Shown: one piece after another, positions 6,815-24,645 of the stretch
How positions within the stretch are numbered: the first letter of the stretch is position 1
How the letters are laid out: each line of letters begins with the position of its first letter
Virus record (IMG/VR): IMGVR_UViG_3300010279_000003
Span: 1-44,407 of that record
Length of the DNA stretch: 44,407 nucleotides
Direction: 5' to 3' (one strand)
DNA from: a virus
Taxonomy: Duplodnaviria > Heunggongvirae > Uroviricota > Caudoviricetes
Made by a program: the position numbers and the translations under genes
Notes under the pieces: generated by a model
Databases searched by the model: none
Seen by the model: the letters and a program-made list of their open reading frames with translations, nothing else
What the model was told of the DNA's origin: nothing

Positions 6815-8056
6815 TTATTCCAAATCTTCTTCACTAACCTGATTCCACTCAGGCCGTTTGTCGTCTGCCGTTGTGATGCATGGGGCACCTGGTTTACGTG
6901 TGATGAAGTCTTTCAGTTCTTCTTCCGGCACAACTTTAACCGCTTCGGTCGGCGTCATGAGCACTTCTTTAGTCAGCTTGTCGCCGTAGAGTTCTGTTAC
7001 TTTCTCCGCGTCTTTCCACGCACGATTGCCCATCTTACCTTCAACCAGCTTGTACCCAGGAACTTTCTTACCGGAATGCAACGCGGCAGCCATAGCTTTC
7101 TCAACCTTGTCGATGTGCTGGCGCAACAACGGCAACTTCTCGTACTCAGCTACGAGTTCCTCCGGCGTAAGTTCCAGCGCAAAGTCGTCCTCCAGTTCTT
7201 CCGCCAGCACCGCGTTGACGGTTTTTGTACGCGCGGCACACTGTTCAGAGAACCGGCACCACTGACAGCCATCGACCGACGGCTTGAAATCCGACGCTTT
7301 CAGGTTCTTCTTACCGCGGAAATATGCATCTAACGCTAACAGGGCACGTTTCTGTGCAAACTTAGCGAACAGTTCCAGACCTTCAACCGAGATGTCCCAC
7401 TCCGACGCACCGCCAGCGTACGGCTGGAAGATGACCAGACGAACGGTTGTTATGTTATAACGTCTCTTGAGTCGGCGATAAACACCTAGAGCGTAGAGCA
7501 TAAGCTGCTTGTTTTCTTTCGCTTCGACACGATGCCGTCCTGTTTTCAGGTCGCCGATGATAAGCATGTGCCCGTCAGTGTTAGCCAGTTCCTGAACGGC
7601 AACAAGGTCAGCGGTTCCGAACGTCTCAACGCCTTCATACCCAGGATGCAATACCTCAGTAAGATTGACGCGCATTTCCAGCTTGGCGTAAGTTGCTACA
7701 TCGATAATCGGTTTGCAGTAGGCGGTGTACTTTCGCACCTGCTCAATCATGTCCGCCGTAATCAGTACCGCGCCTTTCATCGGGCTGATTAGCGCCTTAA
7801 TCTGGCCTTTACCCTCATCCAGCACGTAAGCACCAACTTCACGCTCTAACGGCAACGCAGTGCCTTTGATGTACTGGTTTAGGTGCATCTCAGCTATCGT
7901 GTGCATGGCGGTACCTAGTACCGCCGCTTTGCCGGATGTGTTAGGAATATCTTTTTCACAGGCCAGCGATGCAGCGCAGCTTAGCCACTTTTTAGCGCCC
8001 GACGGCGACAATAAGGCGTGCACATCATTATTGCCACCGCGTTCTTTTAGAATCAT
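6815..8056 (-). CDS. Cas4/RecB-like PD-(D/E)XK nuclease (DUF2800-like) with C-terminal Cys cluster
   Basis: C-terminal CQWCRFSEQC motif; start set at ATG 8056 (MILKER) overlapping upstream stop; ends ...SEEDLE. Confidence 0.7.
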   Translation of the reverse strand: MILKERGGNNDVHALLSPSGAKKWLSCAASLACEKDIPNTSGKAAVLGTAMHTIAEMHLNQYIKGTALPLEREVGAYVLDEGKGQIKALISPMKGAVLITADMIEQVRKYTAYCKPIIDVATYAKLEMRVNLTEVLHPGYEGVETFGTADLVAVQELANTDGHMLIIGDLKTGRHRVEAKENKQLMLYALGVYRRLKRRYNITTVRLVIFQPYAGGASEWDISVEGLELFAKFAQKRALLALDAYFRGKKNLKASDFKPSVDGCQWCRFSEQCAARTKTVNAVLAEELEDDFALELTPEELVAEYEKLPLLRQHIDKVEKAMAAALHSGKKVPGYKLVEGKMGNRAWKDAEKVTELYGDKLTKEVLMTPTEAVKVVPEEELKDFITRKPGAPCITTADDKRPEWNQVSEEDLE

Positions 8057-8325
8057 GCTCTGTTCTCCCACGGGTCAATTAAATGCCGTGTCTTGTGGTC
8101 GCAATGTAAGGCCCATCCATACATCGACTCGAAGACATAAAAGTCAGGTTTGGCGAATGTCGTGCGCTTAATCTGCGACACATGACGGCCTATATCTTTA
8201 GCCCGCGGTACTTTGCCTAAGTACGCCATCTCTTCCATCTGGTGCGCACCGGACGGCGCACGCAACAGCCACAACGCCTCTGTGTTATCCCGCCTGTCTA
8301 CGGCGCGGTATAGTTGGTAAATCAT
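8053..8325 (-). CDS. Hypothetical protein
   Basis: 90-aa ORF in operon context. Confidence 0.5.
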   Translation of the reverse strand: MIYQLYRAVDRRDNTEALWLLRAPSGAHQMEEMAYLGKVPRAKDIGRHVSQIKRTTFAKPDFYVFESMYGWALHCDHKTRHLIDPWENRA

Positions 8326-8368
8326 AATCCCGACCCTCAGTTAAAGCGGCCCGAAGGCCGCGGGATAG

Positions 8369-8890
8369 TTATTCTTCTTCGAAATACTTGTTCTTGATTG
8401 CTGTCAGGCGTTCCAGGTACTCGGCCAGGTCTTCGTCTTTAATCGCGGCAATCTTCATCTTCTTACCGGTGAACTCTTCCAGCAGTTCGTCAGAATCGTC
8501 GCACGCGGCATCGCTTGGGCCTTCGTTAATCGCATCGTCGATAGCCTGAATCTGGTCGCGCAGAGACTGATAATTGACTTCTTCCTTCTCTTCTTCCGGT
8601 TCTGGCGTCTGCTCCTCTACTTTAGCTTTACGCGGCTTGCGTTTCGGCTTCTCTTCTTCCGCCGGTTTAGTGTCAACGAGGTCTTCACCTTCGACTGGGA
8701 GTTCTTTCGCCTTCTCGACTTCTTCAAGTGCTTTAGCCAGTTCTTTTTTAACTGTCTCCACCCCAGTTACCGCGACGTCAACAGTCAATTCACCTACAGA
8801 TTTATTAGTCGGTTGTTTCACACTGTTCGCAGCAATCAGTTCATGTGCAACTACGAAACGTTCCAGTAATACTAAGAATTTCTCTAACAT
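8369..8890 (-). CDS. Hypothetical Glu/Lys-rich protein
   Basis: 173 aa; first gene downstream of class A promoter at 8922..8950. Confidence 0.55.
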   Translation of the reverse strand: MLEKFLVLLERFVVAHELIAANSVKQPTNKSVGELTVDVAVTGVETVKKELAKALEEVEKAKELPVEGEDLVDTKPAEEEKPKRKPRKAKVEEQTPEPEEEKEEVNYQSLRDQIQAIDDAINEGPSDAACDDSDELLEEFTGKKMKIAAIKDEDLAEYLERLTAIKNKYFEEE

Positions 8891-9247: not shown

Positions 9248-11488
9248 CTACTCCAAATCCTCCTCTGTCACCACCAGCATTTCATTTGGTTCGTATATTG
9301 TCTTCGGTCTTAATCTGTCGCCCATCTTTTCCGGTATCCTGTATGTGCCCGGTATAACTTCACCGTTAACATCGCACCCTAGCATCAACTCACCATCTTT
9401 CAGCATCTTCTCGAGATGGTGGTTGGTGATGGCGTGGTCGCCTGAGTTCGCCACTATCTGCCGTTGGGTAAAACCGCGTCCGGTGTCGTCGGCCTGCTGC
9501 AGGTCTTCCAGCGCGGCGAGTATTGATTCCTTACGCCCTTCATCCTTCCCGCGTTTTACAGCATTCTTTACGTTTTCTTTACCTTCTTTCGTCAGCCCTT
9601 CTTCCCGCTCTTTCTCCTCGTCAGTTTTGAACGGCTCGAAGCCCCACGGCATCAGCACAAGTGCCTTATGTGGTTCTGGCAGGTCGAGGTTTACGATTGT
9701 GCCGTATTCCTCTGTGCTACCCAGGAACTCAACCGCACGGTACTCTTTCGGCGGCGGGGCTTCACGGAACTGTACCGACTCCAGCACCATACCAACCGTC
9801 TTCTGTTGAGGCCCGTGCTTAAATTTAGAGTGGTATACATTTATCTGACGGTCTGTTGCGCGTTCAATTGTCAGTTCCACATCGACGCCTGCGTACAGCG
9901 CGCCACTGCCACGGGCTTTCTTTCCACCCTTCGGGGTATGGTGGACGACGCCTACCGCGGCTTTAGTTGTGTCGCGTACTTCTTTCATGATTGCGATAAC
10001 TTTACCCATACCGATTGCCGTTGATGAACTGTTCTCGTCGAACTTATCGATCGTCAGGGCCAGCGTCTGGTTGAGGGTGTCAAACGCAACCATGCCAATA
10101 GGTTCATCCCCCGCAGTTTCGCGCATTAACTTAATCAGGCTTTTCAGTTTTCCGACTTCACCCATGTCGATGACATGTACATAATCTTTACCTTCCTCAC
10201 CATATTTAGCCGCGAGTGCGTCAATACGTGTGCGTGTAGCCGCGCCACCCTCACCGTCGATATAGAAGTGATGGCAACGCTGGGTGTCCGCCCCGGCGAA
10301 CCGGTATCCGGCGGCGCTAAGATACATCATCCCCAGCGTATAGAACGATTTGTATGTGCCCGACTCCCCGACGATATCCCAGATGCAGTCTGACGGCATA
10401 TAACCTTCAACGACGAAATCAGCCTTTACCGGTTCCGGTAGCTCGTCCTCCTCTGAGCCATCATCGTCTTCCAGGTCGTCCAGGCTGCATGAAACAGATT
10501 CACGCGCACCCCATCCGATAGCCTCGGCGACTTCACTGAACGGCAGCCCGGTCGCATCACACGCATACTTCCACACCTCTTTCGGCGACATGCCTTCGGT
10601 TGCCGTAATGTCAGTGTCGTGGATCATGGTTACGTTCGGCGCTTCGTAGCCCTCGCGCGGGAAGCACAGCAGGAAGTCGTCCGGGCGCGGCGTAGGGTCG
10701 CTGTAATTTTCTGCATGTTCCGGCGTAGCTGGCATCTTAAGGCCGCGGGGCGTCATAACACCGCCGTACTCAAACGCCAGTGCCTCAAACGCATCAGTAA
10801 ACGCGGTACGCAGTTCTTCTGGTATCTGGTAGTCAGATGCGCTGCTCACCTCGTAATCCGGGATGCCTTCCAGTAACTCTTCCGGGTCAATCAGGTCGTT
10901 TCGGCGCGACCAGATAACGGTAGAGCCAACCGGCGGCAGGTACATAGGCTGCGACAGAGTGAAACCGCTGCGGTCCGCGCCCATGCCTTTGAAGAAGTGT
11001 TCCAGCAATCCATGGCGAACACGGATGATGTCTCCGCCTTCAACCGGGCGGCCCAGCGGCATGATGACGCGAAAGCGTGGTGACTCATCGGTATGGGATG
11101 CCGTGGTGTAGAGGCACATAGCCAGGCGGCTGCGCTTAACCAGGCGCACAGCTTCCTGATACTCTTCCGGTGTTGCGCTGTCGAAGTCCAGGTACGCCAG
11201 CGACGATTTGCTTACAGACGCGTCGCAGCGATAGAAAAAGCCTTTACGCGCTTGCTTAAAGTCGCCGGTTTCCGGGTCTGTTACGGTGCTGTGTGTAGAG
11301 TCGCACGCAGCGGTGATATACCCGGGCGCGGTCTTAGGGTTAATCCCATCACGAACGGCATCGAGCGGCTGGATTAGCTCTTTCAGGTCGTCCAGTGTTG
11401 CCGTGTGTGTGGTTCTGACGTTTATATCCTTTTTCTCCGCCCGCGCGTTGCGACGTGACCACGAGTAGGATAAAATTACATCGGACAT
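9248..11488 (-). CDS. Primase/helicase (primase-polymerase-like N-terminus plus RecA-like ATPase C-terminal half)
   Basis: 746 aa; Walker A-like GESGTYKS; acidic DFD motif near N-terminus; ends ...TEEDLE. Confidence 0.7.
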   Translation of the reverse strand: MSDVILSYSWSRRNARAEKKDINVRTTHTATLDDLKELIQPLDAVRDGINPKTAPGYITAACDSTHSTVTDPETGDFKQARKGFFYRCDASVSKSSLAYLDFDSATPEEYQEAVRLVKRSRLAMCLYTTASHTDESPRFRVIMPLGRPVEGGDIIRVRHGLLEHFFKGMGADRSGFTLSQPMYLPPVGSTVIWSRRNDLIDPEELLEGIPDYEVSSASDYQIPEELRTAFTDAFEALAFEYGGVMTPRGLKMPATPEHAENYSDPTPRPDDFLLCFPREGYEAPNVTMIHDTDITATEGMSPKEVWKYACDATGLPFSEVAEAIGWGARESVSCSLDDLEDDDGSEEDELPEPVKADFVVEGYMPSDCIWDIVGESGTYKSFYTLGMMYLSAAGYRFAGADTQRCHHFYIDGEGGAATRTRIDALAAKYGEEGKDYVHVIDMGEVGKLKSLIKLMRETAGDEPIGMVAFDTLNQTLALTIDKFDENSSSTAIGMGKVIAIMKEVRDTTKAAVGVVHHTPKGGKKARGSGALYAGVDVELTIERATDRQINVYHSKFKHGPQQKTVGMVLESVQFREAPPPKEYRAVEFLGSTEEYGTIVNLDLPEPHKALVLMPWGFEPFKTDEEKEREEGLTKEGKENVKNAVKRGKDEGRKESILAALEDLQQADDTGRGFTQRQIVANSGDHAITNHHLEKMLKDGELMLGCDVNGEVIPGTYRIPEKMGDRLRPKTIYEPNEMLVVTEEDLE

Positions 11489-11546: not shown

Positions 11547-11780
11547 TTATTCCAGGTCTTCTAAAGTAGCTGTCATTCCGCGAACTTCGGCAACAGCACT
11601 ATATTTCCCGCCAACATTTTTCACGACACCAGATTTAACCAGCACCTTCAACGACCCTTCAATAATGGCGGAACTATAGTACTTAAAATAACTACGCCGC
11701 AAGTCCATAACGCTGCACGACCCTTTTTTACGTGTTAGCGAAACGACCGCCGTAAATACCCGCGACTGGAACTCGGTCAT
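11547..11780 (-). CDS. Hypothetical protein
   Basis: 77 aa; ends ...TLEDLE, the same tail as two replication proteins. Confidence 0.5.
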   Translation of the reverse strand: MTEFQSRVFTAVVSLTRKKGSCSVMDLRRSYFKYYSSAIIEGSLKVLVKSGVVKNVGGKYSAVAEVRGMTATLEDLE

Positions 11781-11947
11781 TTCACGTTCTCCTTAATCCA
11801 CGCTTCCACTTTCTCCGGGTCAAACGTACCTGGCTGACGACGGCCCATAATGCGAATACAACAATCCGGGAACTTCCCACTCTTTAACCAGTTATTCAGC
11901 GTGCGACGGGTAACCCCGATGCGCTCAGCTACCTCATTCTGCGTCAT
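11777..11947 (-). CDS. AlpA/excisionase-like HTH DNA-binding protein
   Basis: ~56-aa ORF not in the ORF track (below its length cutoff); motif VAERIGVTRRTLNNWLKSGKFP; first gene after promoter 11980..12008. Confidence 0.5.
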   Translation of the reverse strand: MTQNEVAERIGVTRRTLNNWLKSGKFPDCCIRIMGRRQPGTFDPEKVEAWIKENVK

Positions 11948-11979
11948 TCTCAAACCCCCATTATCAGTTAACGAAACAA

Positions 11980-12008
11980 AGTATACATTGCGAATAATGG
12001 GAAATCAA
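11980..12008 (-). promoter_or_regulatory. Sigma70-like promoter for the minus-strand replication operon (TTGATT-N17-TATACT)
   Basis: Hexamers and 17-nt spacing read on minus strand. Confidence 0.5.
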
Positions 12009-12023
12009 ACATAATTGCACCTA

Positions 12024-12052
12024 TTGACATTATGAAAATCTTCGTTTAAGGT
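12024..12052 (+). promoter_or_regulatory. Candidate promoter (TTGACA-N17-TAAGGT) at the start of a non-coding unit
   Basis: Consensus -35, weak -10; terminator about 250 nt downstream. Confidence 0.3.
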
Positions 12053-12098
12053 GCTTCTATATCTTAGTTACTTTGATTCCTGTTCACCTTGTAAGAAT

Positions 12099-12130
12099 GT
12101 TTAACCCGTGCGTCAAGCAAAGGGTTAAAC
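12099..12130. other. Hairpin, 9-bp perfect stem GTTTAACCC/GGGTTAAAC with 14-nt loop
   Basis: Inverted repeat read directly. Confidence 0.7.
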
Positions 12131-12285
12131 ACAGGCTTACTGAACATAAGAATTATCGTAACTTTCCTTCCTTAGTATCTCCGGTTGCCCTGGGCAAGCT
12201 ATATTCTCATCGACGGCATATCTCTTAAGTATCTGATTTTCTTAAAGTGCCGTAGATTCGCAACCGTAAAAATGTAACGATTATT

Positions 12286-12313
12286 GGGCAGGCTTAAGGC
12301 CTGCCCTTTAGTT
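12286..12313 (+). terminator. Intrinsic terminator (stem GGGCAGGC/GCCTGCCC, then TTTAGTT)
   Basis: 8-bp GC-rich stem with T-rich tail in plus orientation. Confidence 0.5.
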
Positions 12314-12378
12314 ACCAAGTAATAAGAATAAAGGCACAACCTTCCCCGAAGAATCACAACGGCAGCGTAACTATTCTC

Positions 12379-12407
12379 TTGCACACCCCAATATAATAGG
12401 ATACTAT
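12379..12407 (+). promoter_or_regulatory. Sigma70-like promoter, class B (TTGCAC-N17-TACTAT)
   Basis: Spacer ...AATATAATAGGATACTATTCA; same family found six times. Confidence 0.6.
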
Positions 12408-12441
12408 TCACTTATCGAAACGAGACAGAGGAGTGAGGGTT

Positions 12442-12582
12442 ATGTTTAAGAAAGGTCAGTTGGCGAAAAAGAGGATGAATATGGTGTTGTCGCCGTATTT
12501 AGCCTTATACGGAAGAAACATGGTTACGTTCATCACAATAATTTACAGCTCATCGGCAACAATTTTAAATTCAAAGGGGTGA
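12442..12582 (+). CDS. Small hypothetical protein (~46 aa)
   Basis: Short ORF downstream of promoter with GAGG-type RBS. Confidence 0.35.
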   Translation: MFKKGQLAKKRMNMVLSPYLALYGRNMVTFITIIYSSSATILNSKG

Positions 12583-12586
12583 AGTG

Positions 12587-12790
12587 ATGGAAGAATTATT
12601 TGAAGAACTGAAACACCATAGACTGGAGAAAGTGCACTTCCAGGTAAACAGATACGAGGTTGTTTTATTAGACGGCCCGACTATTTCTTCCGGGGTATGC
12701 GAAGACTTGCTAAAAGTTTTACGTGCGCTACGAACGGCATCGAATCATGATGCTCGTGCCGAAGACTCTGAGGGAGGTTGCCGTGAATAA
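12587..12790 (+). CDS. Hypothetical protein
   Basis: ORF track 12584..12790, ATG at 12587. Confidence 0.5.
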   Translation: MEELFEELKHHRLEKVHFQVNRYEVVLLDGPTISSGVCEDLLKVLRALRTASNHDARAEDSEGGCRE

Positions 12791-12844
12791 GTTTGTTTTA
12801 ATCATCAGCGCCGTTTATGTGGTGCACGCGTTGTGGGGGTTGGT

Positions 12845-13000
12845 ATGAGAATCCGTATAACTGACCGCAGGCTTATAGATTTCGGTATCTCGGTAGGTGA
12901 TGTTTTTCTGGCGTTCAGCAGCAACCATTATGGTTTTATGATTGAGTACAAAGGGTCGTTATTGTTCGTGTATCGGGATGAATGCGAGGTTCTGGTATGA
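12845..13000 (+). CDS. Small hypothetical protein (~51 aa)
   Basis: Short ORF with overlapping stop/start to next ORF. Confidence 0.35.
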   Translation: MRIRITDRRLIDFGISVGDVFLAFSSNHYGFMIEYKGSLLFVYRDECEVLV

Positions 13001-13140
13001 GAGAAGCATTCGAACGGTGGGCCATCGTCGAGGGTTTGCCGATCAACAAGGGTTCGAAGAAAGAGTACCTGAACGTTAAGACGCGTCTCGCGTGGCGGGC
13101 GTGGAAAGCTGGTGTGCAAACTGTGATGAATAAGGTGTGA
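12997..13140 (+). CDS. Small hypothetical protein (~47 aa)
   Basis: Short ORF, ATGA overlap with upstream ORF. Confidence 0.35.
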   Translation: MREAFERWAIVEGLPINKGSKKEYLNVKTRLAWRAWKAGVQTVMNKV

Positions 13141-13143
13141 GAT

Positions 13144-13344
13144 ATGGGTAAGTGGATTAAGTGTAGTGAGCAGATGCCTGCTCCTTTCTCTCATGTACTT
13201 GTGACCGACGGGGACGAGGTTGAGATTAAATGGTTAGATGGTGATTTTGATGAGTGGGGTAGTTGGGAAGAATTCAACTCCAACATAGATAACGGGGATA
13301 TAGCGCACTGGAGGAAAGTACCTAAACCGCCGAAACTGGTGTAA
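13144..13344 (+). CDS. Hypothetical protein (DUF551-like)
   Basis: 66 aa; W...MP...HVLVTDG...W...HWRKVPKPP pattern. Confidence 0.5.
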   Translation: MGKWIKCSEQMPAPFSHVLVTDGDEVEIKWLDGDFDEWGSWEEFNSNIDNGDIAHWRKVPKPPKLV

Positions 13345-13503
13345 CAGGTCAATAGGTTACTATTTGGCTTAGTGGCTTACGCTGCTACACAGCAGCGTAC
13401 AACTTTAACCTAGTGTCGTCAAAAAGCGACACTTCTCTAAGACTCTGTTGGGTCAGGAATAAAGTGTCTCCGATTAGCGACATTAAACACTAATAAAATT
13501 TAC

Positions 13504-13532
13504 TTGCACACTGGGATAGAATAGGCTACTAT
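13504..13532 (+). promoter_or_regulatory. Sigma70-like promoter, class B (TTGCAC-N17-TACTAT)
   Basis: Followed by conserved leader AAACGAGAGGAGAGACAGAG then ATG at 13563. Confidence 0.6.
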
Positions 13533-13562
13533 TCATTTACACAAACGAGAGGAGAGACAGAG

Positions 13563-14042
13563 ATGAGTAACAAAAACGAAGTATTCGAGTACCTGATTGG
13601 CCAGTTACGGCAGCAGGTAAATGGCAACCAGTGTGAAGACCTGGCGCACGAGGTGTTGTCACTCAAGAATCAGTTACGTGATGCGTCAGAACATATTAAG
13701 GAGTTGCATAAGGCGTTGGCTACAGCTACAGGTGACGTAGGCGCTTATATAGCAGCAGAGCAATCTGGTTGCCGTAAGGAAGATACTCAGTACAACGCCT
13801 GGAGGCCGCATTATGGTGCACGACAACCTGTGCCGGATGGGACTATGGTATTTATCCGGTATCGCAACGGGGAGGAGCTGAAACACAGTGTAGCAGCAGA
13901 AAAGAGGTTGTGGATTTGGGATGGAACATACGCAGACATAGTGGAATACAAGATTGACACACAGGAATGTGAACATGACTATCGTTTGGTTCTGTGGTGT
14001 AGCGACTTACAGCAGTGCTCTAAATGCGGGGTGATCAAATGA
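13563..14042 (+). CDS. Hypothetical protein with C-terminal Cys cluster
   Basis: 159-aa ORF. Confidence 0.6.
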   Translation: MSNKNEVFEYLIGQLRQQVNGNQCEDLAHEVLSLKNQLRDASEHIKELHKALATATGDVGAYIAAEQSGCRKEDTQYNAWRPHYGARQPVPDGTMVFIRYRNGEELKHSVAAEKRLWIWDGTYADIVEYKIDTQECEHDYRLVLWCSDLQQCSKCGVIK

Positions 14043-14242
14043 CCAGCATATTATTTATCTGGGTATTGTCCGCAGGCCAGATGCAACTAGCGGCATCAGA
14101 AACGTTTTATTCGATGGAGGCGTGCCAGTCAGCGGCACGCGCCGCAGAGAACGCGCACTTTCTGTTTCAGGGTGACAAGCCCAACGACTCAGAGGTACGC
14201 GCTATCTGCTCACCTAAGCGACTTGGTAAACAGGAGAAGTGA
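14039..14242 (+). CDS. Hypothetical small exported protein (N-terminal signal-like segment)
   Basis: Hydrophobic N-terminus ILFIWVLSAGQMQLAA. Confidence 0.5.
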   Translation: MTSILFIWVLSAGQMQLAASETFYSMEACQSAARAAENAHFLFQGDKPNDSEVRAICSPKRLGKQEK

Positions 14243-14244
14243 TT

Positions 14245-14517
14245 ATGGTTCGGAAATATGAGTTAAAAGAAGACTGCGTTAATGGTCATATCGACTTAGA
14301 GGAAGATACAGACGGTGGCTGGGTTCGCTACGAAGACTACAAGGAACTGGATGACAGTTTCCAGGACTACATAACCGCTACTGACATGGAAATCGAGGGG
14401 CTTGTAGCGAGACTGGCAGAAGTAAACGCCGAGTTACAGAAATACAAAGACCAGTTCCCGGATTACGTCGAGTGCGCGAACTGTGGGTCGGTTACACATG
14501 TGGAAGGGGTGGAGTGA
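14245..14517 (+). CDS. Hypothetical protein
   Basis: ORF track 14239..14517; ATG at 14245 after CAGGAGAAG RBS. Confidence 0.5.
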   Translation: MVRKYELKEDCVNGHIDLEEDTDGGWVRYEDYKELDDSFQDYITATDMEIEGLVARLAEVNAELQKYKDQFPDYVECANCGSVTHVEGVE

Positions 14518-14711
14518 TGGTACAGAGGTATGAGGTGGAAAAATGGGGCCTGCCAGAGCCTGAGATGGCTGAGTACGCATACGGCGATTATGTAGAATAC
14601 GACGCTTATCTTAAACTGGAAGCAAAGTTACGTGAATTCGCTGAACAGGTAATGTACGAACCTTGTTCGAAAGTTACAGAAGAAATGGCCCGCGAGATTC
14701 TCGGAATATGA
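14517..14711 (+). CDS. Hypothetical protein
   Basis: ATG at 14517 overlapping upstream stop. Confidence 0.5.
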   Translation: MVQRYEVEKWGLPEPEMAEYAYGDYVEYDAYLKLEAKLREFAEQVMYEPCSKVTEEMAREILGI

Positions 14712-15001
14712 GCCTTGCAACTGACATCCTGAAACGAAGCGGCCTTGCGCCGCTGTCACCGAGAACGAACACCCGAATATACAAGCGCCGCCGTAACGCG
14801 CTGTACCCTGAGATTCAAGCCAGACGCAAAGCCATCCGCGCCTGCGGATTCCAGAGCGGGAAGGCCGTTAATCTAGGCGAGTTTAAGACGAAGGAACGCG
14901 CAGCAATCGCTAATCGGTTATTTAATTACTGGAAATCGCTGGGATATGATGATATTCCGACGAAACCGCAGAGACGACAATACATCTGGAGACATAAATA
15001 A
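14708..15001 (+). CDS. Hypothetical basic protein
   Basis: ATG at 14708 overlapping upstream stop. Confidence 0.5.
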   Translation: MSLATDILKRSGLAPLSPRTNTRIYKRRRNALYPEIQARRKAIRACGFQSGKAVNLGEFKTKERAAIANRLFNYWKSLGYDDIPTKPQRRQYIWRHK

Positions 15002-15076
15002 ACCGTTATTAAGATAATTCCTAACCGTGCTATCCTCCGGTTACTGCATACTTAATACGCACCTGGAGGATTCATC

Positions 15077-15385
15077 TTGGATAAATTTACTGAAACAGTG
15101 ACAGGCTGGCTTCTCGCTGCCGCGCTAGCCGGAGGGGTAATCGGGCTACGACAACACAAAGCCACTATTACTGGTCCTGTCGATGCTCTCTGTTTTCTCT
15201 CCACTGGATTTGCGTGCGCCGTATTTGGTGCACCTCTCGCCGCCCAATGGTTCGGTATCACCGGCGAGCGCGAGATAGCTGGCCTCGGATTTATCATCGC
15301 TGTCCTCTGGATGCCCATCTATTCCCGCCTCTCCGGTATCGTCGCCGGAGAATATATCGCACGTCGAGGAGGCACAGATGAATGA
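15077..15385 (+). CDS. Putative holin (three predicted transmembrane segments)
   Basis: 102 aa, TTG start 8 nt after GGAGGA; immediately upstream of endolysin. Confidence 0.55.
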   Translation: MDKFTETVTGWLLAAALAGGVIGLRQHKATITGPVDALCFLSTGFACAVFGAPLAAQWFGITGEREIAGLGFIIAVLWMPIYSRLSGIVAGEYIARRGGTDE

Positions 15386-15650
15386 GTTATTCTGGTTCGG
15401 TGGTATGCTGGCAATCGGAGGCGCATCGCTGTTTAATGTGTATCACCCCCGCGTGGATGACGGACTATTTGGCCGGGTGCTCTATATCCTGACTGCTATT
15501 GTCTGCGCCGCCGGAGGCATTCACCTGTTACAGGGCAGCATGTCGCCAACGTTGCCGGAGACATTAATCACATTAGTTGCGCTGCGTCAGATTCGACAGG
15601 CGTGGCTGTCATACGGAGGGCATGAGCGTGTCTCGAAATATTTCCGATAA
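15378..15650 (+). CDS. Membrane protein (second holin component or antiholin)
   Basis: 90 aa, two hydrophobic segments, overlaps holin stop and endolysin start. Confidence 0.45.
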   Translation: MNELFWFGGMLAIGGASLFNVYHPRVDDGLFGRVLYILTAIVCAAGGIHLLQGSMSPTLPETLITLVALRQIRQAWLSYGGHERVSKYFR

Positions 15651-16116
15651 TGGCTTACATTTCTGCGCCGCGTTCGAGGGATTCCGCGGAACTGCGTATC
15701 GTGCTACGCCGAATGAGAAGTACCTGACTATTGGGTACGGTCACTATGGGCCGGACGTAACACCAGGTAAGACCATCACCCCTGGCCAAGGCCTCCTGTT
15801 ACTGAATCGCGATATGGCTAAGGCCGTAGCTGCGGTTGATGCAGCAGCACACCATTCGCTGACACAGGCGCAGTTCGACGCCGTGTGTGACCTGGTCTAT
15901 AACGCCGGTGCAGGTGTGATTGCAGCTACTACTGGCACGGGTAAGGCGCTGCGTTCCGGTGATGTTGCGACGCTACGGGCTAAACTGGCGCTGTTTATCA
16001 ACCAGAACGGCAAACCGCTACTCGGCTTGCGCCGCCGTACAGCGGGTCGTCTGGCGCTGTACGACGGTAAACCGTGGCAGGAGGCTGAGGCTATTGGGCG
16101 CGCGGTGAAAGGTTGA
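15622..16116 (+). CDS. Endolysin, lysozyme (GH24-like)
   Basis: FEGFRGTAY and YLTIGYGH motifs; start ATG 15622 inside ORF-track ORF 15577..16116. Confidence 0.85.
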   Translation: MSVSRNISDNGLHFCAAFEGFRGTAYRATPNEKYLTIGYGHYGPDVTPGKTITPGQGLLLLNRDMAKAVAAVDAAAHHSLTQAQFDAVCDLVYNAGAGVIAATTGTGKALRSGDVATLRAKLALFINQNGKPLLGLRRRTAGRLALYDGKPWQEAEAIGRAVKG

Positions 16117-16183
16117 CACCTAAGACTAATCCGACGATACTTAAATCACCTCCTGTTCCATCCCTCTGCTCTCCAGTTTTATC

Positions 16184-16212
16184 CCGGCCCTGACCCAGCC
16201 GGGATTTTTTTT
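16184..16212 (+). terminator. Intrinsic terminator after the lysis genes
   Basis: Stem CCCGGC/GCCGGG followed by T8. Confidence 0.7.
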
Positions 16213-16234
16213 ATCTATTTTCTGCAATGACTAG

Positions 16235-16263
16235 TTGACTACTACCCTAGACCCTATTATATT
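16235..16263 (+). promoter_or_regulatory. Sigma70-like promoter (TTGACT-N17-TATATT)
   Basis: Followed by leader CGACAACGAGAACGGAGTAGAGAAG and ATG at 16297. Confidence 0.55.
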
Positions 16264-16296
16264 TACTCCATCGACAACGAGAACGGAGTAGAGAAG

Positions 16297-16488
16297 ATGA
16301 AAATTACTAAGATTAAGCATACCGATAACTGGGGTGATTTCCTGGAGATAGAGAAGTGCAGGGATGGTTCATTACTTATAACTTGCACCGACGGAGATAG
16401 TGACGAATTATCTAATGTTAATGTGAGCCTCGATGATTTTATGTCTATTGCTGAGCAGGTTATGGCGTTTTATGGAGATGTTAAATGA
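16297..16488 (+). CDS. Hypothetical protein
   Basis: 63-aa ORF with strong RBS. Confidence 0.5.
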   Translation: MKITKIKHTDNWGDFLEIEKCRDGSLLITCTDGDSDELSNVNVSLDDFMSIAEQVMAFYGDVK

Positions 16489-16634
16489 AAATCACAGATA
16501 TCGAAGCATTCAAAGACGCACAATTGATGGCACGCATCGCCGTTAGTAACCTGAGCAAAAGCATCCCAGCGGCCGCGTTCTGGTTCGCTGCGATGCAGAC
16601 ACTGAAAGCAGCTTATGCAGGAGAGAAGAAATGA
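16485..16634 (+). CDS. Small hypothetical protein (~49 aa)
   Basis: ATGA overlap with neighbours. Confidence 0.35.
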   Translation: MKITDIEAFKDAQLMARIAVSNLSKSIPAAAFWFAAMQTLKAAYAGEKK

Positions 16635-16789
16635 GCGAACAAGGTCAAGTAAGCCAACCGTTACGAGTAGGCCGTAAAGTCAGTCACACCCCGTTCCCGA
16701 CACGCGAGGAACTGATGAAACGAAACAGTTTCTCGGGGCCGGACAAGAACAAGTATCTCAATCGCATGTGGGGAGAGCGTAAAGAATGA
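16631..16789 (+). CDS. Small hypothetical protein (~52 aa)
   Basis: ATGA overlap with neighbours. Confidence 0.35.
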   Translation: MSEQGQVSQPLRVGRKVSHTPFPTREELMKRNSFSGPDKNKYLNRMWGERKE

Positions 16790-16974
16790 CTGACCGTGAA
16801 TACGAGAAAGCCTGTGTAGAAGCGGCACTCCGTCCCACCGACAATGGTGAATCGGAGATTGCTTGCCTGGATACTATGATTCAGTACTACGCAAATAAGG
16901 TAGACCGCCTGATGGAGCAACGTCGTGAACTGATTAACCGCTTCAACCTGAACAAAGGTGACACTAATGCCTAA
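16786..16974 (+). CDS. Hypothetical protein
   Basis: 62-aa ORF. Confidence 0.5.
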   Translation: MTDREYEKACVEAALRPTDNGESEIACLDTMIQYYANKVDRLMEQRRELINRFNLNKGDTNA

Positions 16975-17158
16975 AATCACAATCGCATCACTCGAGCGCC
17001 GTATTCTGGTGCTTGAGTCAGAGAAACAGACGTTAGGCGGGCAACTGTCAATTAACGGTGAATTTCAACTGGCGGCGTTTAAGTTGTTGTTGGAAGAACT
17101 GCGTAATAAGGCTTACGAGGAAGAACTGCGCGAACAGTATGAAGGATCAAGGTTGTGA
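16967..17158 (+). CDS. Hypothetical coiled-coil protein
   Basis: ATG 16967 inside ORF-track ORF 16958..17158. Confidence 0.5.
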   Translation: MPKITIASLERRILVLESEKQTLGGQLSINGEFQLAAFKLLLEELRNKAYEEELREQYEGSRL

Positions 17159-17337
17159 AAGCGCCTGAACCGGTAGTAATTGATGGCGTCCTGTGGAAAC
17201 CCTACTCGGTTAACCACATCGACGCCGACGGGAAGAAGTTTAGCTTCTACATTTTTGCAATTAGCCGTGAGCACGCCGCTTGTGTGGTCGATGATATACG
17301 AGAAACGGCGTGGCTTGGCGATGAGGTAGTGGGGTGA
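17155..17337 (+). CDS. Hypothetical protein
   Basis: GTG start overlapping upstream stop. Confidence 0.45.
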   Translation: MKAPEPVVIDGVLWKPYSVNHIDADGKKFSFYIFAISREHAACVVDDIRETAWLGDEVVG

Positions 17338-17339
17338 TT

Positions 17340-17510
17340 ATGTTCAGTGACATCAACGCAGCAATCGAAGAAGCAATATGGCGGCGCTATAACGGCGAGC
17401 AACAGCGGCACTTTTGCCTCGTGCAACGCGGTAACATGATTGCCGTAGTGCAGGACCGGGATAACAAATATCCGAATGCGATGTGGTCAACGAGGAATTT
17501 CTTAGGATGA
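17340..17510 (+). CDS. Small hypothetical protein (~56 aa)
   Basis: Short ORF, ATGA overlap downstream. Confidence 0.35.
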   Translation: MFSDINAAIEEAIWRRYNGEQQRHFCLVQRGNMIAVVQDRDNKYPNAMWSTRNFLG

Positions 17511-17749
17511 TTACCAGCATTCCTAACCTGATTAAAGAATTCGGCACGATGGCGGAGACATGCCGACAAACTGGCCTCAACGAAATGACGATTGCTAAGT
17601 ACAGCAAAGACGTGAAATGTGAGCGCCACGTAATTTATAACAACCGTCTTATGACGCATGTTAAGACAAGCCCGGTGTTATTCACTCGCCGCGGTATCAC
17701 TAAAACTGAGCAACGCATTGCTAAAGAGGAGAACGAATGCGGCTACTAA
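17507..17749 (+). CDS. Hypothetical protein
   Basis: ATG 17507 inside ORF-track ORF 17483..17749. Confidence 0.5.
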   Translation: MITSIPNLIKEFGTMAETCRQTGLNEMTIAKYSKDVKCERHVIYNNRLMTHVKTSPVLFTRRGITKTEQRIAKEENECGY

Positions 17750-17842
17750 TCATCCCTAACGTCTGGGCTATCGCTGTAGCTAACAACCATTACGGCGGCG
17801 ATGGTAAAAGAGCACCACGACACGGCCTGTATAACTGATACA

Positions 17843-17867
17843 AGCCCTCTACGGAGGGCTTTTCTGT
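17843..17867 (+). terminator. Intrinsic terminator at the end of the early plus-strand block
   Basis: Stem AGCCCTC/GAGGGCT, loop TACG, then TTTTCTG. Confidence 0.55.
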
Positions 17868-17959
17868 ACATCCCGCCCAATCCCCTTATATAATCCCTTT
17901 AGACGCGTAGGGCGCGTCTGGTGCGCTCTGATGGTCAGACGCATATGCAAGGGGATTAT

Positions 17960-18505
17960 ATGAAGCTGAAACTCAAGCAGCCATCGCCAGAGGTGGTGCA
18001 AGCTGCACATGAAGAAGCTGTTAGCGCAAACCGTCGCCGTAAACGACCGCGCGGTAAACAGAGCCTTTATCAATCATCCCGTAATTCCGCCGCGTTGTGG
18101 GACCCGGACTATTGCGACGAATTGATTCGTTTCTTCGACCGCACGTCGTGGGAGCTTGTGCCTACCTCCAAAGGCGACGAACGCCCGCTGATTCAGGACA
18201 AACCGCCGTCACTGGCCCGCTTTGCCTTACGCATCGGCGTCACTATCCCGATTATTAAGCTGTGGCTGCGCGAGATTCCCGCATTCGCAGAAGCATGGGA
18301 GACAGCGCAGGCATTGGAAGAGGCATACTTCACTGAGACAGGGGCCGCAGGTATCTCTGCTACGTTTGCCGCTGCGAAACTTGGCCTTGGCAAAGAGAAA
18401 CCAGTTGAATCCGCCGAAGAAACGGCACCGACTGAGATTATTTTCAGTGTTGCGGAGCCTGTAGGTAAAATTGTAACAACGAACATGGGTGAGGTAGAGG
18501 AATGA
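17960..18505 (+). CDS. terS: Putative terminase small subunit
   Basis: Position immediately upstream of terL with overlapping stop/start; basic N-terminal region; ATG 17960 inside ORF-track ORF 17921..18505. Confidence 0.5.
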   Translation: MKLKLKQPSPEVVQAAHEEAVSANRRRKRPRGKQSLYQSSRNSAALWDPDYCDELIRFFDRTSWELVPTSKGDERPLIQDKPPSLARFALRIGVTIPIIKLWLREIPAFAEAWETAQALEEAYFTETGAAGISATFAAAKLGLGKEKPVESAEETAPTEIIFSVAEPVGKIVTTNMGEVEE

Positions 18506-19752
18506 GTATTCAGCTATCCGCGCCGCAGGCACTGTTCCTGAATTGTGACAACAAATACAAGGCCTACGTAGGCGGCTTCGGTAGTGGCAAGACGTTTGTC
18601 GGCTGCCTTGACCTGCTTACGTTTATGCTCAAGCACCCCGGTACGCGCCTGGGCTACTTCGGCCCGACCTATCCCGCCATCCGTGACATCTTCTACCCAA
18701 CATTCGAGGAAGCGGCTAACCTGCTCGGCCTTGATGTGCTGGTTAAATCCGGAGACAAAGAGGTTGTGGTTACTCGCGGTAAGACGGTGCTCGGAACGGT
18801 TATCTGCCGCTCTATGGATAACCCCGGCTCGATTGTGGGTTTCAAAATCGCCGCAGCATGCGTGGATGAGCTCGATGTATTGAGCCGAGAAAAAGCTGAA
18901 CTGGCATGGAACAAAATCGTCGCCCGTATGCGTCTGGTTATCCCTGATGTAACCAACCACATCTCCGTCACCACGACGCCGGAAGGGTTCAAGTTCGTCT
19001 ACGCCAAGTTCAAAGAGAACCCGACACCGAGTTACTCAATGGTGCAGGCTTCCACCCACGAGAACGCGCGATTCCTGCCGCCTGACTACATTAGCTCGCT
19101 GACCGAGACTTACCCAGCGCAACTGATTAACGCGTACCTGAATGGGGAGTTCGTTAACCTGACATCCGGCAGCGTCTACTACGCCTACGACCGACGTAAG
19201 CATCGCAGCAAAGAGACAATCCAACCGGGCGACACGCTGTACATCGGGCAGGACTTCAACGTTACGAAGAACGCCAGCGCCGTGTATGTGCAACGTAAAG
19301 ACGGCTGGCACGCGGTAGCAGAACTGAAGGGCCTGTTCGATACGCCAGATACCGTGCGTGTGATTACCGAGAAGTGGAAGTCGCAAGGCCACCGCATCGT
19401 CGTTTACCCGGACGCCAGCGGCAAGAACCGCAAAACCAACTCGGCGTCAATCTCCGATATCGCCTTACTACAGCAGGCCGGTTTTGATGTTCGCGCTAAA
19501 TCCGCCAACCCACCGGTTAAAGACCGTGTTTTAGCCGTGAATACCGCGCTGGAAAAAGGTAAGCTGTGGGTTAACGACCACTTATGCCCTGAGATAGCGA
19601 AGACACTGGAGCAGCAGGCATATGATGATAACGGAGAGCCTGCTAAAGACGGCGTCATTGACCATATGGCGGATGCTCTCGGCTATCCTGTAGTTTATGA
19701 GATGCCGGTGGTTAAACCAGTAATCAACATCCCGGTGACTTTCGCACTTTAA
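18502..19752 (+). CDS. terL: Terminase large subunit
   Basis: Walker A (YVGGFGSGKTFVG) in N-terminal ATPase region; 416 aa. Confidence 0.85.
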   Translation: MSIQLSAPQALFLNCDNKYKAYVGGFGSGKTFVGCLDLLTFMLKHPGTRLGYFGPTYPAIRDIFYPTFEEAANLLGLDVLVKSGDKEVVVTRGKTVLGTVICRSMDNPGSIVGFKIAAACVDELDVLSREKAELAWNKIVARMRLVIPDVTNHISVTTTPEGFKFVYAKFKENPTPSYSMVQASTHENARFLPPDYISSLTETYPAQLINAYLNGEFVNLTSGSVYYAYDRRKHRSKETIQPGDTLYIGQDFNVTKNASAVYVQRKDGWHAVAELKGLFDTPDTVRVITEKWKSQGHRIVVYPDASGKNRKTNSASISDIALLQQAGFDVRAKSANPPVKDRVLAVNTALEKGKLWVNDHLCPEIAKTLEQQAYDDNGEPAKDGVIDHMADALGYPVVYEMPVVKPVINIPVTFAL

Positions 19753-19764
19753 GAGGATTATTCA

Positions 19765-23278: not shown

Positions 23279-23281
23279 TTT

Positions 23282-24399: not shown

Positions 24400-24413
24400 A
24401 CTATTCGAATAGT
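24400..24413. promoter_or_regulatory. Perfect 14-bp palindrome ACTATTCGAATAGT (operator-like)
   Basis: Read directly; built from the ACTATTC element found in the promoter family; abuts TTGACT at 24413. Confidence 0.5.
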
Positions 24414-24441
24414 TGACTTTTCACTAAAAATATGATAAGCT
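24413..24441 (+). promoter_or_regulatory. Candidate promoter (TTGACT-N17-TAAGCT)
   Basis: Consensus -35, weak -10; same TAAG-T type -10 as the candidate at 12024..12052. Confidence 0.35.
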
Positions 24442-24447
24442 CCACCT

Positions 24448-24645
24448 GAGCTTGTGAAGTATGAGCAAGCGACCGCGGCGCGGCAGGTAACGGAGCTGGA
24501 CGTAAGTCCTGAGTGTAGTTACGCTGACGCGTTCGGAAGGGCCATACTCTATTGCTTGTGTAAAAAGTAACTGGTTTACTGAGATTACGCCGTTTCTATG
24601 TTTAAATGATAAGGACTAGCGCCCCGCTTTAAGGCGGGGCTTTAC
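24448..24645 (+). ncRNA. Candidate non-coding transcript or leader (~200 nt) between promoter and terminator
   Basis: No ORF of 60 aa or more in the ORF track; only very short ORFs or a 37-codon GTG frame without convincing RBS. Confidence 0.3.
24621..24645 (+). terminator. Intrinsic terminator upstream of the spanin genes
   Basis: Stem GCCCCGC/GCGGGGC, loop TTTAAG, T-rich tail. Confidence 0.55.

Follow-up and report, generated by a model that had tools for sequence, protein, structure and literature searches.

A gene-free stretch of 494 bp (11948-12441) in the genome of a Kagunavirus (Guernseyvirinae) was found by computation to carry a promoter, a structured transcript and a terminator, which are conserved and covary among relatives; coding is absent, and a paralogous cassette stands before the late genes. 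The cassette most likely gates rightward transcription rather than being a replication origin. Tentatively, at just short of an even chance, we read the region as the main divergent control region and the cassette as a cis-acting leader/terminator checkpoint on rightward transcription.

The window (the whole stretch of DNA that was analysed, 44,407 nt) places this region between two operons. Its left border is the ATG of a minus-strand HTH_17 gene, with a TTG-extended ORF up to 11953, and its right border is an ATG at 12442. The rightward operon downstream holds small genes, holins and the endolysin, and ends at a strong terminator near 16.2 kb. Since a separate promoter follows that terminator, the 12-kb cassette has no control of packaging or head genes. 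An earlier note, made from the letters alone, had listed here two divergent promoters, a hairpin, a plus-oriented terminator and a class B promoter, and had suggested a non-coding control region with a small RNA and/or an origin of replication. All five features were found where it had put them, each above chance or conserved. The non-coding control region stood, as did the small RNA in silico, and the origin gained no specific support. The features are as follows.

9248-11488, minus strand: helicase-primase gene, P-minus operon
11547-11780, minus strand: gene of a 77-aa protein, P-minus operon
11777-11947, minus strand: HTH_17 regulator gene, first gene of the P-minus operon
11980..12008, minus strand: P-minus promoter, sigma-70-type, TTGATT (12008-12003), 17 nt, TATACT (11985-11980)
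12024..12052, plus strand: P-plus, predicted promoter of the non-coding cassette, TTGACA (12024-12029), 17 nt, TAAGGT (12047-12052)
12059..12313, plus strand: predicted non-coding RNA (leader or small RNA) of ~255 nt, from P-plus to the terminator
12066..12163, plus strand: 5' domain, 99-nt extended five-helix hairpin (from folding and covariation)
12066-71 / 12158-63, plus strand: helix P1, AGUUAC/GUAACU
12074-79 / 12150-55, plus strand: helix P2
12081-86 / 12141-46, plus strand: helix P3, UGUUCA/UGAACA
12087-90, plus strand: bulge CCUU of the 5' domain
12091-95 / 12136-40, plus strand: helix P4, GUAAG/CUUAC
12098..12131, plus strand: P5 apex, perfect 10-bp stem (12098-12107 with 12122-12131)
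12164..12180, plus strand: conserved pyrimidine-rich linker UUCCUUCCUUAGUAUCU, predicted single-stranded
12185..12253, plus strand: central domain, a hairpin and an enclosing helix
12185-12197, plus strand: central hairpin UUGCC-CUG-GGCAA
12213-18 / 12248-53, plus strand: central helix ACGGCA/UGCCGU, enclosing CUUAA/UUAAG
12274..12315, plus strand: terminator hairpin with upper stem, U tail and lower stem
12379..12407, plus strand: class B phage-specific promoter, TTGCAC (12379-12384), 17 nt, TACTAT (12402-12407), around AATATAATAGGATACTAT
12199-12411, minus strand: antisense ORF, 70 aa, GTG start
16235-16263: separate promoter after the terminator that follows the endolysin gene

P-minus matched the consensus at 9/12 positions in the promoter scan, and both of its hexamers are conserved across Kaguna- and Jerseyvirus relatives. 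P-plus, with a predicted start near 12059, was overlooked by the promoter scanner because its -10 matches at just 3/6 positions. At its -35, most type-A relatives have exactly CACCTATTGACATT; in each of two sampled relatives a single base differs, outside the TTGACA hexamer, and the -10 is always TAAGGT or TAAGTT. The pattern TTGACW-N17-TAAGNT occurs twice in 44 kb (0.03 expected), exactly at the two cassettes, and the annotations of phages Jersey and SETP3 list P-plus as a promoter. An exact 14-mer scan with CACCTATTGACATT against viral contigs gave 120 loci, most of them unrelated, and was discarded, the pattern being too short. The class B promoter lies ~70 nt downstream of the cassette terminator, and its core is present in 5 copies in the genome (0.02 expected), all with an RBS and ATG about 25-35 nt downstream (here at 12429-12444, with small rightward genes beyond). 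The matching class B motif that precedes the second cassette appears in the fBC-Eco01 annotation as a PHIRE 'phage promoter'.

The full RNA was predicted to fold with an MFE of -81.5 kcal/mol (z = -5.8, 0/200 shuffles equally stable). In an unfitted alignment of 22 sequences, 99.5% of cells were paired versus 31-50% in slid-partner controls, and the 12 compensatory cells were reached in 0/500 shuffles. One-sided changes in this alignment were of four kinds, all yielding G·U on the plus strand; those of the central domain were U-A to U·G (n=10 sequences), A-U to G·U (n=9) and U-A to U·G (n=10). Promoter, structured ~255-nt transcript and terminator are kept jointly in two genera and in every non-homologous allele, in line with the small RNA proposed earlier.

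The 5' hairpin alone folds at -37.3 kcal/mol (z = -7.05, 0/200 shuffles equally stable), with z from -3.9 to -7.05 across six variants, and its five-helix architecture is common to 32 distinct relatives. P3 and P4 are unbroken in 32/32 of these, pairing being preserved by compensatory substitutions and by one compensated indel: P4 closes with G-C, A-U or U-A and has A-U, G·U or G-C in its middle, and P3 shows a compensated U/A insertion between genera. P2 is replaced among relatives (UGAUUC/GAAUUA versus UUAAGUUU/AAACUUAA). The P5 apex is a hypervariable tip with five unrelated sequence families in relatives, comprising 20 distinct sequences of 38-52 nt, every one a predicted hairpin, and with a compensatory change from C-G to U-A within a family (L170). 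The hairpin that had been noticed earlier (12099..12130, with a 9-bp stem) is thus present, with a stem of 10 bp, and is merely the tip of the 99-nt structure. Apex covariation with neighbouring genes was sought and rejected: apex families i-iv all go with an HTH protein of 100% identity, families i and ii have a first-gene allele in common, and helicase identity does not track apex family. The 5' hairpin is about equally stable on both strands (mean -35.9 kcal/mol on the plus strand versus -35.0 kcal/mol, plus more stable in 20/32), and neither its MFE nor its G·U counts allowed the strand of function to be called; the only strand-informative signal was the one-sided substitution pattern.

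The linker is unpaired in the MFE fold and nearly invariant between genera, save for a 1-nt indel. It resembles an anti-Shine-Dalgarno sequence and may have a functional meaning. An A/U-rich stretch precedes the terminal hairpin. The terminator has an upper stem of 9 bp, 7 of them G-C (GGGCAGGCU-UAA-GGCCUGCCC, 12286-12306), an imperfect U-tract (UUUAGUU, 12307-12313) and an invariant lower stem (GUAAC/GUUAC, 12274-78 / 12311-15). The site 12286-12313, the terminator of the earlier note, was the top-ranked terminator-like site in 12000-31900; its stem carries a compensatory change from C-G to U-A in 4 relatives, and its loop is free to vary. Termination here is probably partial, as suggested by the imperfect U-tract. 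The GTWAC motifs were considered as protein-binding iterons and rejected, as the equivalent pair covaries as a helix in the second cassette and in allele B (GUAAC/GUUAC to GGAAC/GUUCC).

Hundreds of related phages of E. coli and Salmonella carry the cassette without annotation, and its type-A 5' module matches 376 phage records. The locus is mosaic, with 5' types A-D, 3' types 1-3 and non-homologous alleles in other phages. Every allele combination has a near-consensus -35, a TAnnnT -10 and a terminal hairpin, and the alleles share almost no sequence. Structured length across alleles is 220-290 nt (221-287), with z from -2.6 to -6.2, and the spacing between the HTH gene and the downstream sequence common to all hardly varies (387-406 nt). 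Module borders are sharp and lie at short shared sequences (ACTGAT; GAATCACAACGGCAACGTAACT; ATGTTTAAGAAGGGTCAG). Identity between genera reaches 90-94% at 12201-12400, which may reflect recent exchange; other patches, e.g. 7100-8600, are equally similar between genera.

A second cassette with the same architecture was identified further along the genome.

24413..24645, plus strand: second cassette with promoter, structured leader and hairpin
24413-24441, plus strand: second-cassette promoter, TTGACT-17-TAAGCT
24621-24640, plus strand: second-cassette hairpin, GCCCCGC/GCGGGGC followed by UUUACUU

Its structured leader measures about 190 nt, and its hairpin stands 24 nt before an ATG (24665, with an RBS) with no intervening promoter. 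The genes downstream encode an Rz-like spanin, scaffold and capsid, within the spanin-capsid-tail genes. The type B allele, which replaces the 12-kb cassette in other Kagunaviruses, is ~80% identical to 24413-24554 and, judged by this identity, is a paralogue of the second cassette. In 12000-31900 no other terminator-like site ranks above the hairpins of the two cassettes. In Jerseyvirus the second-cassette hairpin has just 'UUAGCGUAU' behind it; given this and the imperfect U-tracts, the hairpins may be stabilisers instead of terminators.

In the favoured reading we infer an active P-plus, partial or regulated termination and a leader that works in cis. P-minus and P-plus, host-type and back to back, would open the region, P-minus driving the early HTH-replication operon and P-plus the ~255-nt non-coding RNA instead of a protein gene. 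The nascent RNA would fold co-transcriptionally into the 99-nt five-helix hairpin, the pyrimidine-rich linker and the second domain, followed by the G+C-rich terminator hairpin. A majority of P-plus transcripts would end at 12307-12315 and accumulate as a small RNA, and a fraction would read through to the small genes, holins and endolysin; this fraction may be increased by a phage factor or by the leader in its folded form. For the small rightward genes, an independent start would be provided by the class B promoter 70 nt further on. That promoter also counts against the reading, as it leaves those genes with no need of read-through from P-plus, and so do the weak P-plus -10, the imperfect U-tract and the near-equal MFE of the 5' hairpin on both strands, which is compatible with a DNA-level palindrome. 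The text of the single Kagunavirus RNA-seq paper (PMC12645636) was searched and makes no mention of intergenic or non-coding transcripts.

In phage lambda, late control runs from the PR' promoter through a 194-nt '6S' leader RNA to the tR' terminator, which is read through under Q. The Kagunavirus cassette resembles PR'-6S-tR' in having a sigma-70 promoter, a non-coding RNA of ~200-250 nt and an intrinsic terminator before lysis genes (here in silico), and in the second cassette of the same design directly before spanin and capsid genes. A -10-like hexamer shortly after the predicted start (TATCTT 12060-12065 in Kagunavirus, aligned with TAACTT in Jerseyvirus) may be a counterpart of the sigma-dependent pause signal that lambda has at this position. 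The cassette differs in that no Q homologue was found: neither a Q-like nor an N-like protein came out of Pfam and PHROGs searches with 10 small proteins (9 of them rightward) and the flanking genes, and the 81 annotated genes of Bas73 include no antiterminator, though one of a novel family is conceivable. PDB sequence searches with the helicase-primase and two small proteins gave no matches, and a single-sequence AlphaFold model of a basic 97-aa protein (14708-15001) was set aside at a mean pLDDT of 61. Unlike in lambda, the class B promoter follows the terminator at the 12-kb locus, the promoter-free late-gene arrangement being that of the cassette at 24413-24664; the leader is far more structured than 6S RNA, with no sequence similarity; and Kagunavirus is virulent, the operon gated at the 12-kb locus ending after the endolysin gene.

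The put RNAs of phage HK022 are cis-acting antiterminators of ~70 nt whose two stem-loops form a V (PMC9378689). They share with the Kagunavirus leader a folded nascent RNA just after an early host-type promoter and before terminators, no identifiable dedicated protein factor, and two copies per genome heading two operons. The Kagunavirus RNA differs in being one 99-nt five-helix hairpin with a second domain and has no apparent sequence similarity to put; put acts via the beta' zinc-binding domain of RNAP, and the Kagunavirus RNA was compared with it by position and predicted fold.

As one alternative, the 255-nt terminated transcript may itself be the functional product, a stand-alone trans-acting small RNA, which we regard as unlikely. 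Such an RNA would target mRNAs of the phage or the host, for instance by pairing of the linker (12164-12180) with ribosome-binding sites, or would act as a decoy that engages a host factor or a defence system; specificity or escape would in that case be determined by the hypervariable apex. In keeping with this, all alleles form a discrete promoter-to-terminator unit, and the downstream genes have their own promoter directly after the terminator, as one would predict for an RNA that is a gene in its own right. Other features that fit are a CU-rich stretch, unpaired and conserved, the A/U-rich stretch before the terminal hairpin and an apex that varies freely in sequence yet stays paired, and the exchangeable non-homologous alleles resemble an accessory ('moron'-like) locus. 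However, no conserved target complementarity was identified, and the alleles cannot share a seed because they have almost no sequence in common. The second cassette is moreover arranged as a leader, its hairpin next to a late-gene ATG, and allele B is its paralogue. Searches of Rfam at the gathering threshold gave 0 matches in the window and 5 related loci (best sub-threshold hit Hrs12, 20 bits versus a threshold of 70, E = 1.1). Mimicry of a host sRNA was rejected, since the cassette has no homologue in E. coli genomes and plasmids. Ideas of CRISPR-repeat (Racr) and retron elements were inspected by eye only and dropped.

The origin of replication that the earlier note had offered as a candidate would be of the transcription-activated or primed kind, like the T7 primary origin, T4 oriF/ori(uvsY) or ColE1 RNA II, and is quite improbable. 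By analogy with these, the P-plus transcript would form an R-loop or expose a displaced-strand hairpin, on which a T7-like replisome would load. The region resembles such origins in its promoter, its structured or A+T-rich stretch and its adjacent replication genes, and relatives have a T7-like set annotated (gp2.5-like SSB, DNA polymerase, helicase-primase, exonuclease, endonuclease VII). It includes the A+T-rich 11950-12100 (31-32% GC), and 12001-13000 is the lowest-GC kilobase of the genome (41.6%). The equal stability of the 5' hairpin on either strand is what a DNA palindrome would give, and the rest of the window, which has no iteron array anywhere, offered no rival origin candidate of the iteron type. 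The cumulative GC-skew minimum at about 12000 is not independent evidence, as it coincides with the switch in gene orientation and other reversals match minus-strand gene blocks. Against an origin, no iterons or tandem repeats were found in the region, where repeats are limited to 2-3 short imperfect copies of 8-21 nt, and DnaA boxes are not enriched (66 versus 69 expected), with no perfect box within the region. The motif TGTTCACC (12083-12090) matches the P4 alpha iteron; it was rejected as a chance-expected single copy that is not conserved in Jerseyvirus, which has TGTTTCAC. The 5' module is exchanged among phages whose helicase-primases are 85-99% identical: one phage with a helicase-primase 96% identical over the 269 residues available carries 5' type C (L047), and helicase-primases of 85-88% identity go with types A, B or C. 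Such non-homologous alleles, uncoupled from the helicase-primase allele, are unlike primed origins, as is the recurrence of the same architecture before late genes, to whose leader one allele is paralogous. The one-sided substitutions, all to plus-strand G·U, fit RNA better than duplex DNA. If the region were an origin, it would be the first mapped for Guernseyvirinae.

It is very unlikely that the cassette makes no regulatory decision and serves in RNA processing or stability, or is kept chiefly as a junction for recombination. In the former case RNase III-type processing would take place at the long hairpin, and the terminal hairpins would stabilise 3' or 5' ends, by analogy with T7 early mRNAs, whose RNase III sites are about 50-60 nt long and lie between genes. 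The likeness is a hairpin that is long, imperfect and interrupted by internal loops, placed towards the 5' end of early transcripts made by host RNAP, shortly after a host-type promoter; the poor U-tracts of the hairpins agree with it, but the Kagunavirus hairpin precedes a terminator instead of a gene. As a junction, the cassette would be a mobile promoter/stem-loop module analogous to the PeSL of T4-type phages, which are short promoter-plus-hairpin modules without a structured RNA of ~250 nt. PeSL likewise lie beside small accessory genes of high variability, at the borders of recombination, and the sharp module borders, the freely recombining alleles and the mosaic high-identity patches between genera would suit such a role. 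Unlike PeSL, the Kagunavirus cassette is itself the variable unit, with internal helices under selection. Conservation of specific helices, bulge and linker across genera exceeds the needs of a simple stabiliser or junction, and promoter and hairpin always occur together at constant overall length.

A hidden small protein gene, either the antisense ORF (12199-12411) or a plus-strand TTG ORF (12073-12228), can hardly be the explanation: ORFs of 51-70 aa are present and some relatives have annotated hypothetical CDSs (the Bas73 counterpart of the antisense ORF has 106 aa), but neither Pfam nor PHROGs gave a match, the frames vary among relatives (70, 116, 106, 57 and 45-61 aa, none in L045), the antisense ORF differing in extent in every relative, the most conserved block contains 1-nt indels, and apex replacements change the length by +3, +10 and +12 nt. 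No ORF is conserved across the region, and both divergent promoters are kept. Conserved coding sequence in relatives, which the earlier note had named as grounds for refutation, was looked for with a negative outcome.

The element was not found described in the literature on Kagunavirus and Jerseyvirus origins and transcriptomes, MB78 promoters, CM001 or Jersey-like phage sRNA. These ~490 bp are among the best-conserved non-coding DNA of the subfamily, and annotation in relatives is limited to predicted promoters and hypothetical ORFs, with no function given. It is conceivable, though doubtful, that Guernseyvirinae control their lysis and late operons via an unrecognised processive-antitermination or attenuation system of long structured leader RNAs. 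Such a system would be protein-free, like HK022 put with a different fold, or would work with a new antiterminator, and the apex would be its exchangeable specificity or escape determinant.

Guernseyvirinae are virulent phages of E. coli and Salmonella that find wide use in phage therapy and biocontrol, and hundreds of such isolates have been sequenced. Should the leader reading be true, two RNA-based checkpoints would stand before the lysis-containing operon and before the capsid-tail operon, so far ignored in Kagunavirus annotation, engineering and minimisation. Deletion or rewiring of the cassettes could alter the timing of lysis and the yield of late-gene products. As a set of non-homologous alleles that share one architecture and an always-paired hypervariable apex, the cassette family offers a handle for finding a new antitermination factor or a self-acting leader.

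The 1-kb stretch around the control region matched 298 phage records, all from Guernseyvirinae siphoviruses. Matches were 90–96% for Escherichia Kagunavirus genomes and more distant for Salmonella Jerseyvirus, so the window is, by sequence matching, an essentially complete Kagunavirus genome. The flanking genes are separated by a gap of 494 bp. Every promoter, hairpin and terminator that the earlier note had placed in this gap was found there, and the features are as follows:

11777–11947, minus strand: HTH_17 regulator (56 aa), left of the gap
left of the gap, minus strand: 77-aa protein of unknown function (phrog_5169)
left of the gap, minus strand: helicase-primase (746 aa; AAA_25, phrog_3228)
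12008–11980, minus strand: promoter P-minus, TTGATT-17-TATACT, 9/12 match
12024–12052, plus strand: promoter P-plus, TTGACA-17-TAAGGT, with the -10 below the scanner cut-off
12286–12306 followed by TTTAGTT, plus strand: terminator hairpin, ranked first among terminator-like sites from 12000 to 31900
12379–12407, plus strand: class B promoter (a phage-specific motif), 70 nt beyond the terminator

A strong, canonical terminator directly after the endolysin gene (~16185–16213, CCCGGC...GCCGGG and eight T) was passed over by the scanner because of its 9-nt loop; next comes a TTGACT-17-TATATT promoter (stretch to 16263) serving the next small-gene block and the terminase. To the right of the gap, small plus-strand genes begin at ATG 12442, and in Bas73, a fully annotated relative, the small rightward genes are followed by holins and endolysin and then by terminase, portal and head genes. 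The first rightward gene (12442–12587) is apparently frameshifted by a deletion relative to relatives, whose version encodes a ~60-aa protein: MFKKGQL lies in one frame and the conserved rest (...EDEYGVVAVFSLIRKKHGYV...LIGNNFKFKGVK*) in another. Either a pseudogene or a sequencing error may account for this. Directly ahead of the holin genes, a very basic, arginine-rich 97-aa protein (14708–15001, phrog_9632) is a possible candidate for a nucleic-acid-binding regulator. It had no Pfam or PDB match, its single-sequence model was too poor for use, and the ‘peptidase HslV family’ annotation of the gene in Bas73 and Jerseyvirus Ent2 is linked to it by position only.

The P-plus -35 hexamer is kept in every sampled relative carrying type A, the window's 5' allele, and the flank CACCTA...TT differs by one base in each of two relatives. 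TTGACW-N17-TAAGNT occurs twice in 44 kb (0.03 expected). The class B motif occurs five times in the genome (0.02 expected), in each case shortly before an RBS and ATG. These copies (TTGCAC-N-AAYATAATAGGRTACTAT; 12390 and 13515 on the plus strand, 21468, 24318 and 33873 on the minus strand) share a similar short leader (TCAnTTA...AAAC) before the RBS and ATG; two lie ahead of small rightward genes, one ahead of a RusA-like resolvase gene and the one at 33873 probably, judged from Bas73 gene order, ahead of the exonuclease cluster.

The RNA from the predicted start (~12059) to the terminator tail folds at -81.5 kcal/mol (z = -5.8). The hairpin noticed earlier is real, with a perfect 10-bp stem, but it forms only the tip (apex, P5, 12098–12131) of one five-helix hairpin of 99 nt (P1–P5) at 12066–12163 (z = -7.05). 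Homologues were collected from 37 loci in both genera, giving 32 distinct sequences, and helices were compared by anchoring on invariant flanks. The same five-helix hairpin was predicted for all 32, with P3 and P4 paired in each. Within P4 the closing pair varies in strict coordination (G-C, A-U or U-A) and the middle pair is A-U, G·U or G-C. In P3 one genus, compared with the other, has an extra U on one strand matched by an extra A on the opposite one, and P2 differs in sequence between the genera while being complementary in both. On a MAFFT alignment unfitted to structure, 99.5% of cells pair, against 31–50% when partners are slid by 1–3 columns, and the 12 compensatory cells were reached by none of 500 shuffles. 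In the terminator, the stem shows one compensatory pair, the loop varies freely and the lower stem (GUAAC/GUUAC) is invariant. One-sided changes give G·U on the plus strand at 4/4 positions; the minus strand would have A·C mismatches there. This is mild evidence for a plus-strand RNA, with the caveat that the 5' hairpin has about equal total folding energy on both strands.

The apex belongs to five unrelated sequence families, each forming a hairpin, and one change within a family is compensatory. It switches among these families in phages otherwise nearly identical nearby and tracks no neighbouring gene: the HTH protein is 100% identical across four families, and apex family is independent of this protein and of the first downstream gene. 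Diversifying selection, escape and neutral palindrome turnover are candidate causes.

Between the genera the 5' domain, source of the covariation evidence, is 65–72% identical, about the same as its neighbours, and the helicase-primase gene averages ~63% in nucleotides and 64–65% in protein. Block 12201–12400 reaches 90–94% identity; since other patches, e.g. 7100–8600, are equally similar, recent exchange could explain it.

Other phages of the same genus have different sequences between the same flanking genes. The alleles number at least four on the 5' side (A–D) and three on the 3' side, with short shared sequences at their junctions. A near-consensus -35, a TAnnnT -10, an RNA of 221–287 nt and a terminal hairpin are present in all combinations; each RNA is more stable than its shuffled versions (z from -2.6 to -6.2), and the HTH gene lies 387–406 nt from the shared downstream sequence GAATCACAACGG. 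The 5' allele is independent of the helicase-primase allele: 85–88% identical proteins accompany types A, B or C, and type C also occurs with a 96% identical helicase-primase (269 residues available). The helicase-primase is itself mosaic (loci L038, L040, L042–L044; hits H187–H195), some Kagunaviruses keeping the C-terminal half (76–94% identity) with a different N-terminal half and others having a helicase with only ~30% identity.

Across its promoter and the ~115 nt transcribed first, allele B is ~80% identical to a sequence elsewhere in subfamily genomes, present in most of those the search returned. Its counterpart in the window belongs to a second cassette:

24291–24664: second divergent control region
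24335–24318, leftward: class B promoter, toward the RusA-like resolvase gene 23769–24290
24413–24554: counterpart of allele B
24413, rightward: TTGACT-17-TAAGCT promoter, then ~190 nt of structured leader
24621–24640 followed by UUUACUU, rightward: G+C-rich hairpin at the leader end

The ATG of an Rz-like spanin lies 24 nt past this hairpin, with no promoter between them, and is followed by o-spanin, scaffold, major capsid and tail genes. The hairpin stem varies by phage (GCCCCGC/GCGGGGC, GCCCUGC/GCAGGGC, GCCCGGC/GCCGGGC, GCCCGAC/GUCGGGC), and the long internal hairpin has an altered apex with pairing retained; covariation in Kaguna- and Jerseyvirus indicates a leader conserved by structure. 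Just upstream of the 24413 promoter -35, an inverted repeat (TTATTCC-N19-GGAATAA, 24362–24400), also in Jerseyvirus with a changed spacer, resembles a binding site at which a dimeric protein would regulate the late cassette.

A host-type promoter, a folded leader, a hairpin with a partial U-tract and a second promoter 70 nt on form the in silico basis of the proposed mechanism. P-plus would fire from the start of infection, and most transcripts would stop at 12307–12315 and accumulate as a 255-nt RNA, while a fraction, possibly regulated, would extend into the operon of small genes and lysis genes. Either the folded leader would help RNA polymerase pass, as HK022 put does, or it would be what a factor acts on. 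The nearest known system is lambda PR'-6S RNA-tR'; against a lambda-like reading, Pfam and PHROG scans of 10 small proteins (9 rightward) and the flanking genes found no Q- or N-like protein. With the class B promoter downstream, the small genes can do without read-through, which counts against a checkpoint, and U-tracts are poor, especially in Jerseyvirus, which counts against a terminator. A search of the text of the one Kagunavirus RNA-seq paper (PMC12645636) found no mention of intergenic or non-coding transcripts.

A processing or stability element, or a recombination cassette, is possible and would leave the detailed helix conservation unexplained. The small RNA suggested in the earlier note holds as a structured promoter-to-terminator unit in silico; its discreteness, conserved unpaired pyrimidine-rich linker and variable apex would suit action in trans, which is hard to square with alleles lacking common sequence and a paralogous cassette arranged as a leader. 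The origin of replication also proposed there, in transcription-primed form, is unlikely: the region adjoins replication genes, has low GC content and relatives have an annotated T7-like replisome, but it has no iterons, tandem repeats or DnaA-box enrichment, the skew turn follows gene orientation and the alleles are uncoupled from replication proteins. A conserved coding sequence in relatives, which would have contradicted the non-coding call, was not found and a protein is effectively excluded: the antisense ORF 12199–12411 and a plus-strand TTG ORF had no Pfam or PHROG match, open frames shift in place and length among relatives (70, 116, 106, 57, 45–61 aa; none in one phage), 1-nt indels fall inside the best-conserved block and the central hairpin is swapped for sequences differing by 3, 10 or 12 nt in length.

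Searches gave no Rfam family match, no E. coli homologue (genomes and plasmids) and no paper describing the element; 376 phage records hold the type-A module, mostly unannotated or at most with a predicted promoter or hypothetical ORF. The element is an unnamed, not previously described form of phage promoter-proximal leader or small RNA, a familiar category. Its structure is solid, as is the two-cassette design, and annotation had given no reason to expect either; its function we infer, and the strongest clue is that the genome carries two cassettes built alike and that some relatives have a copy of the second in place of the first, which favours reading the 12-kb cassette as a cis-acting leader over reading it as an origin.
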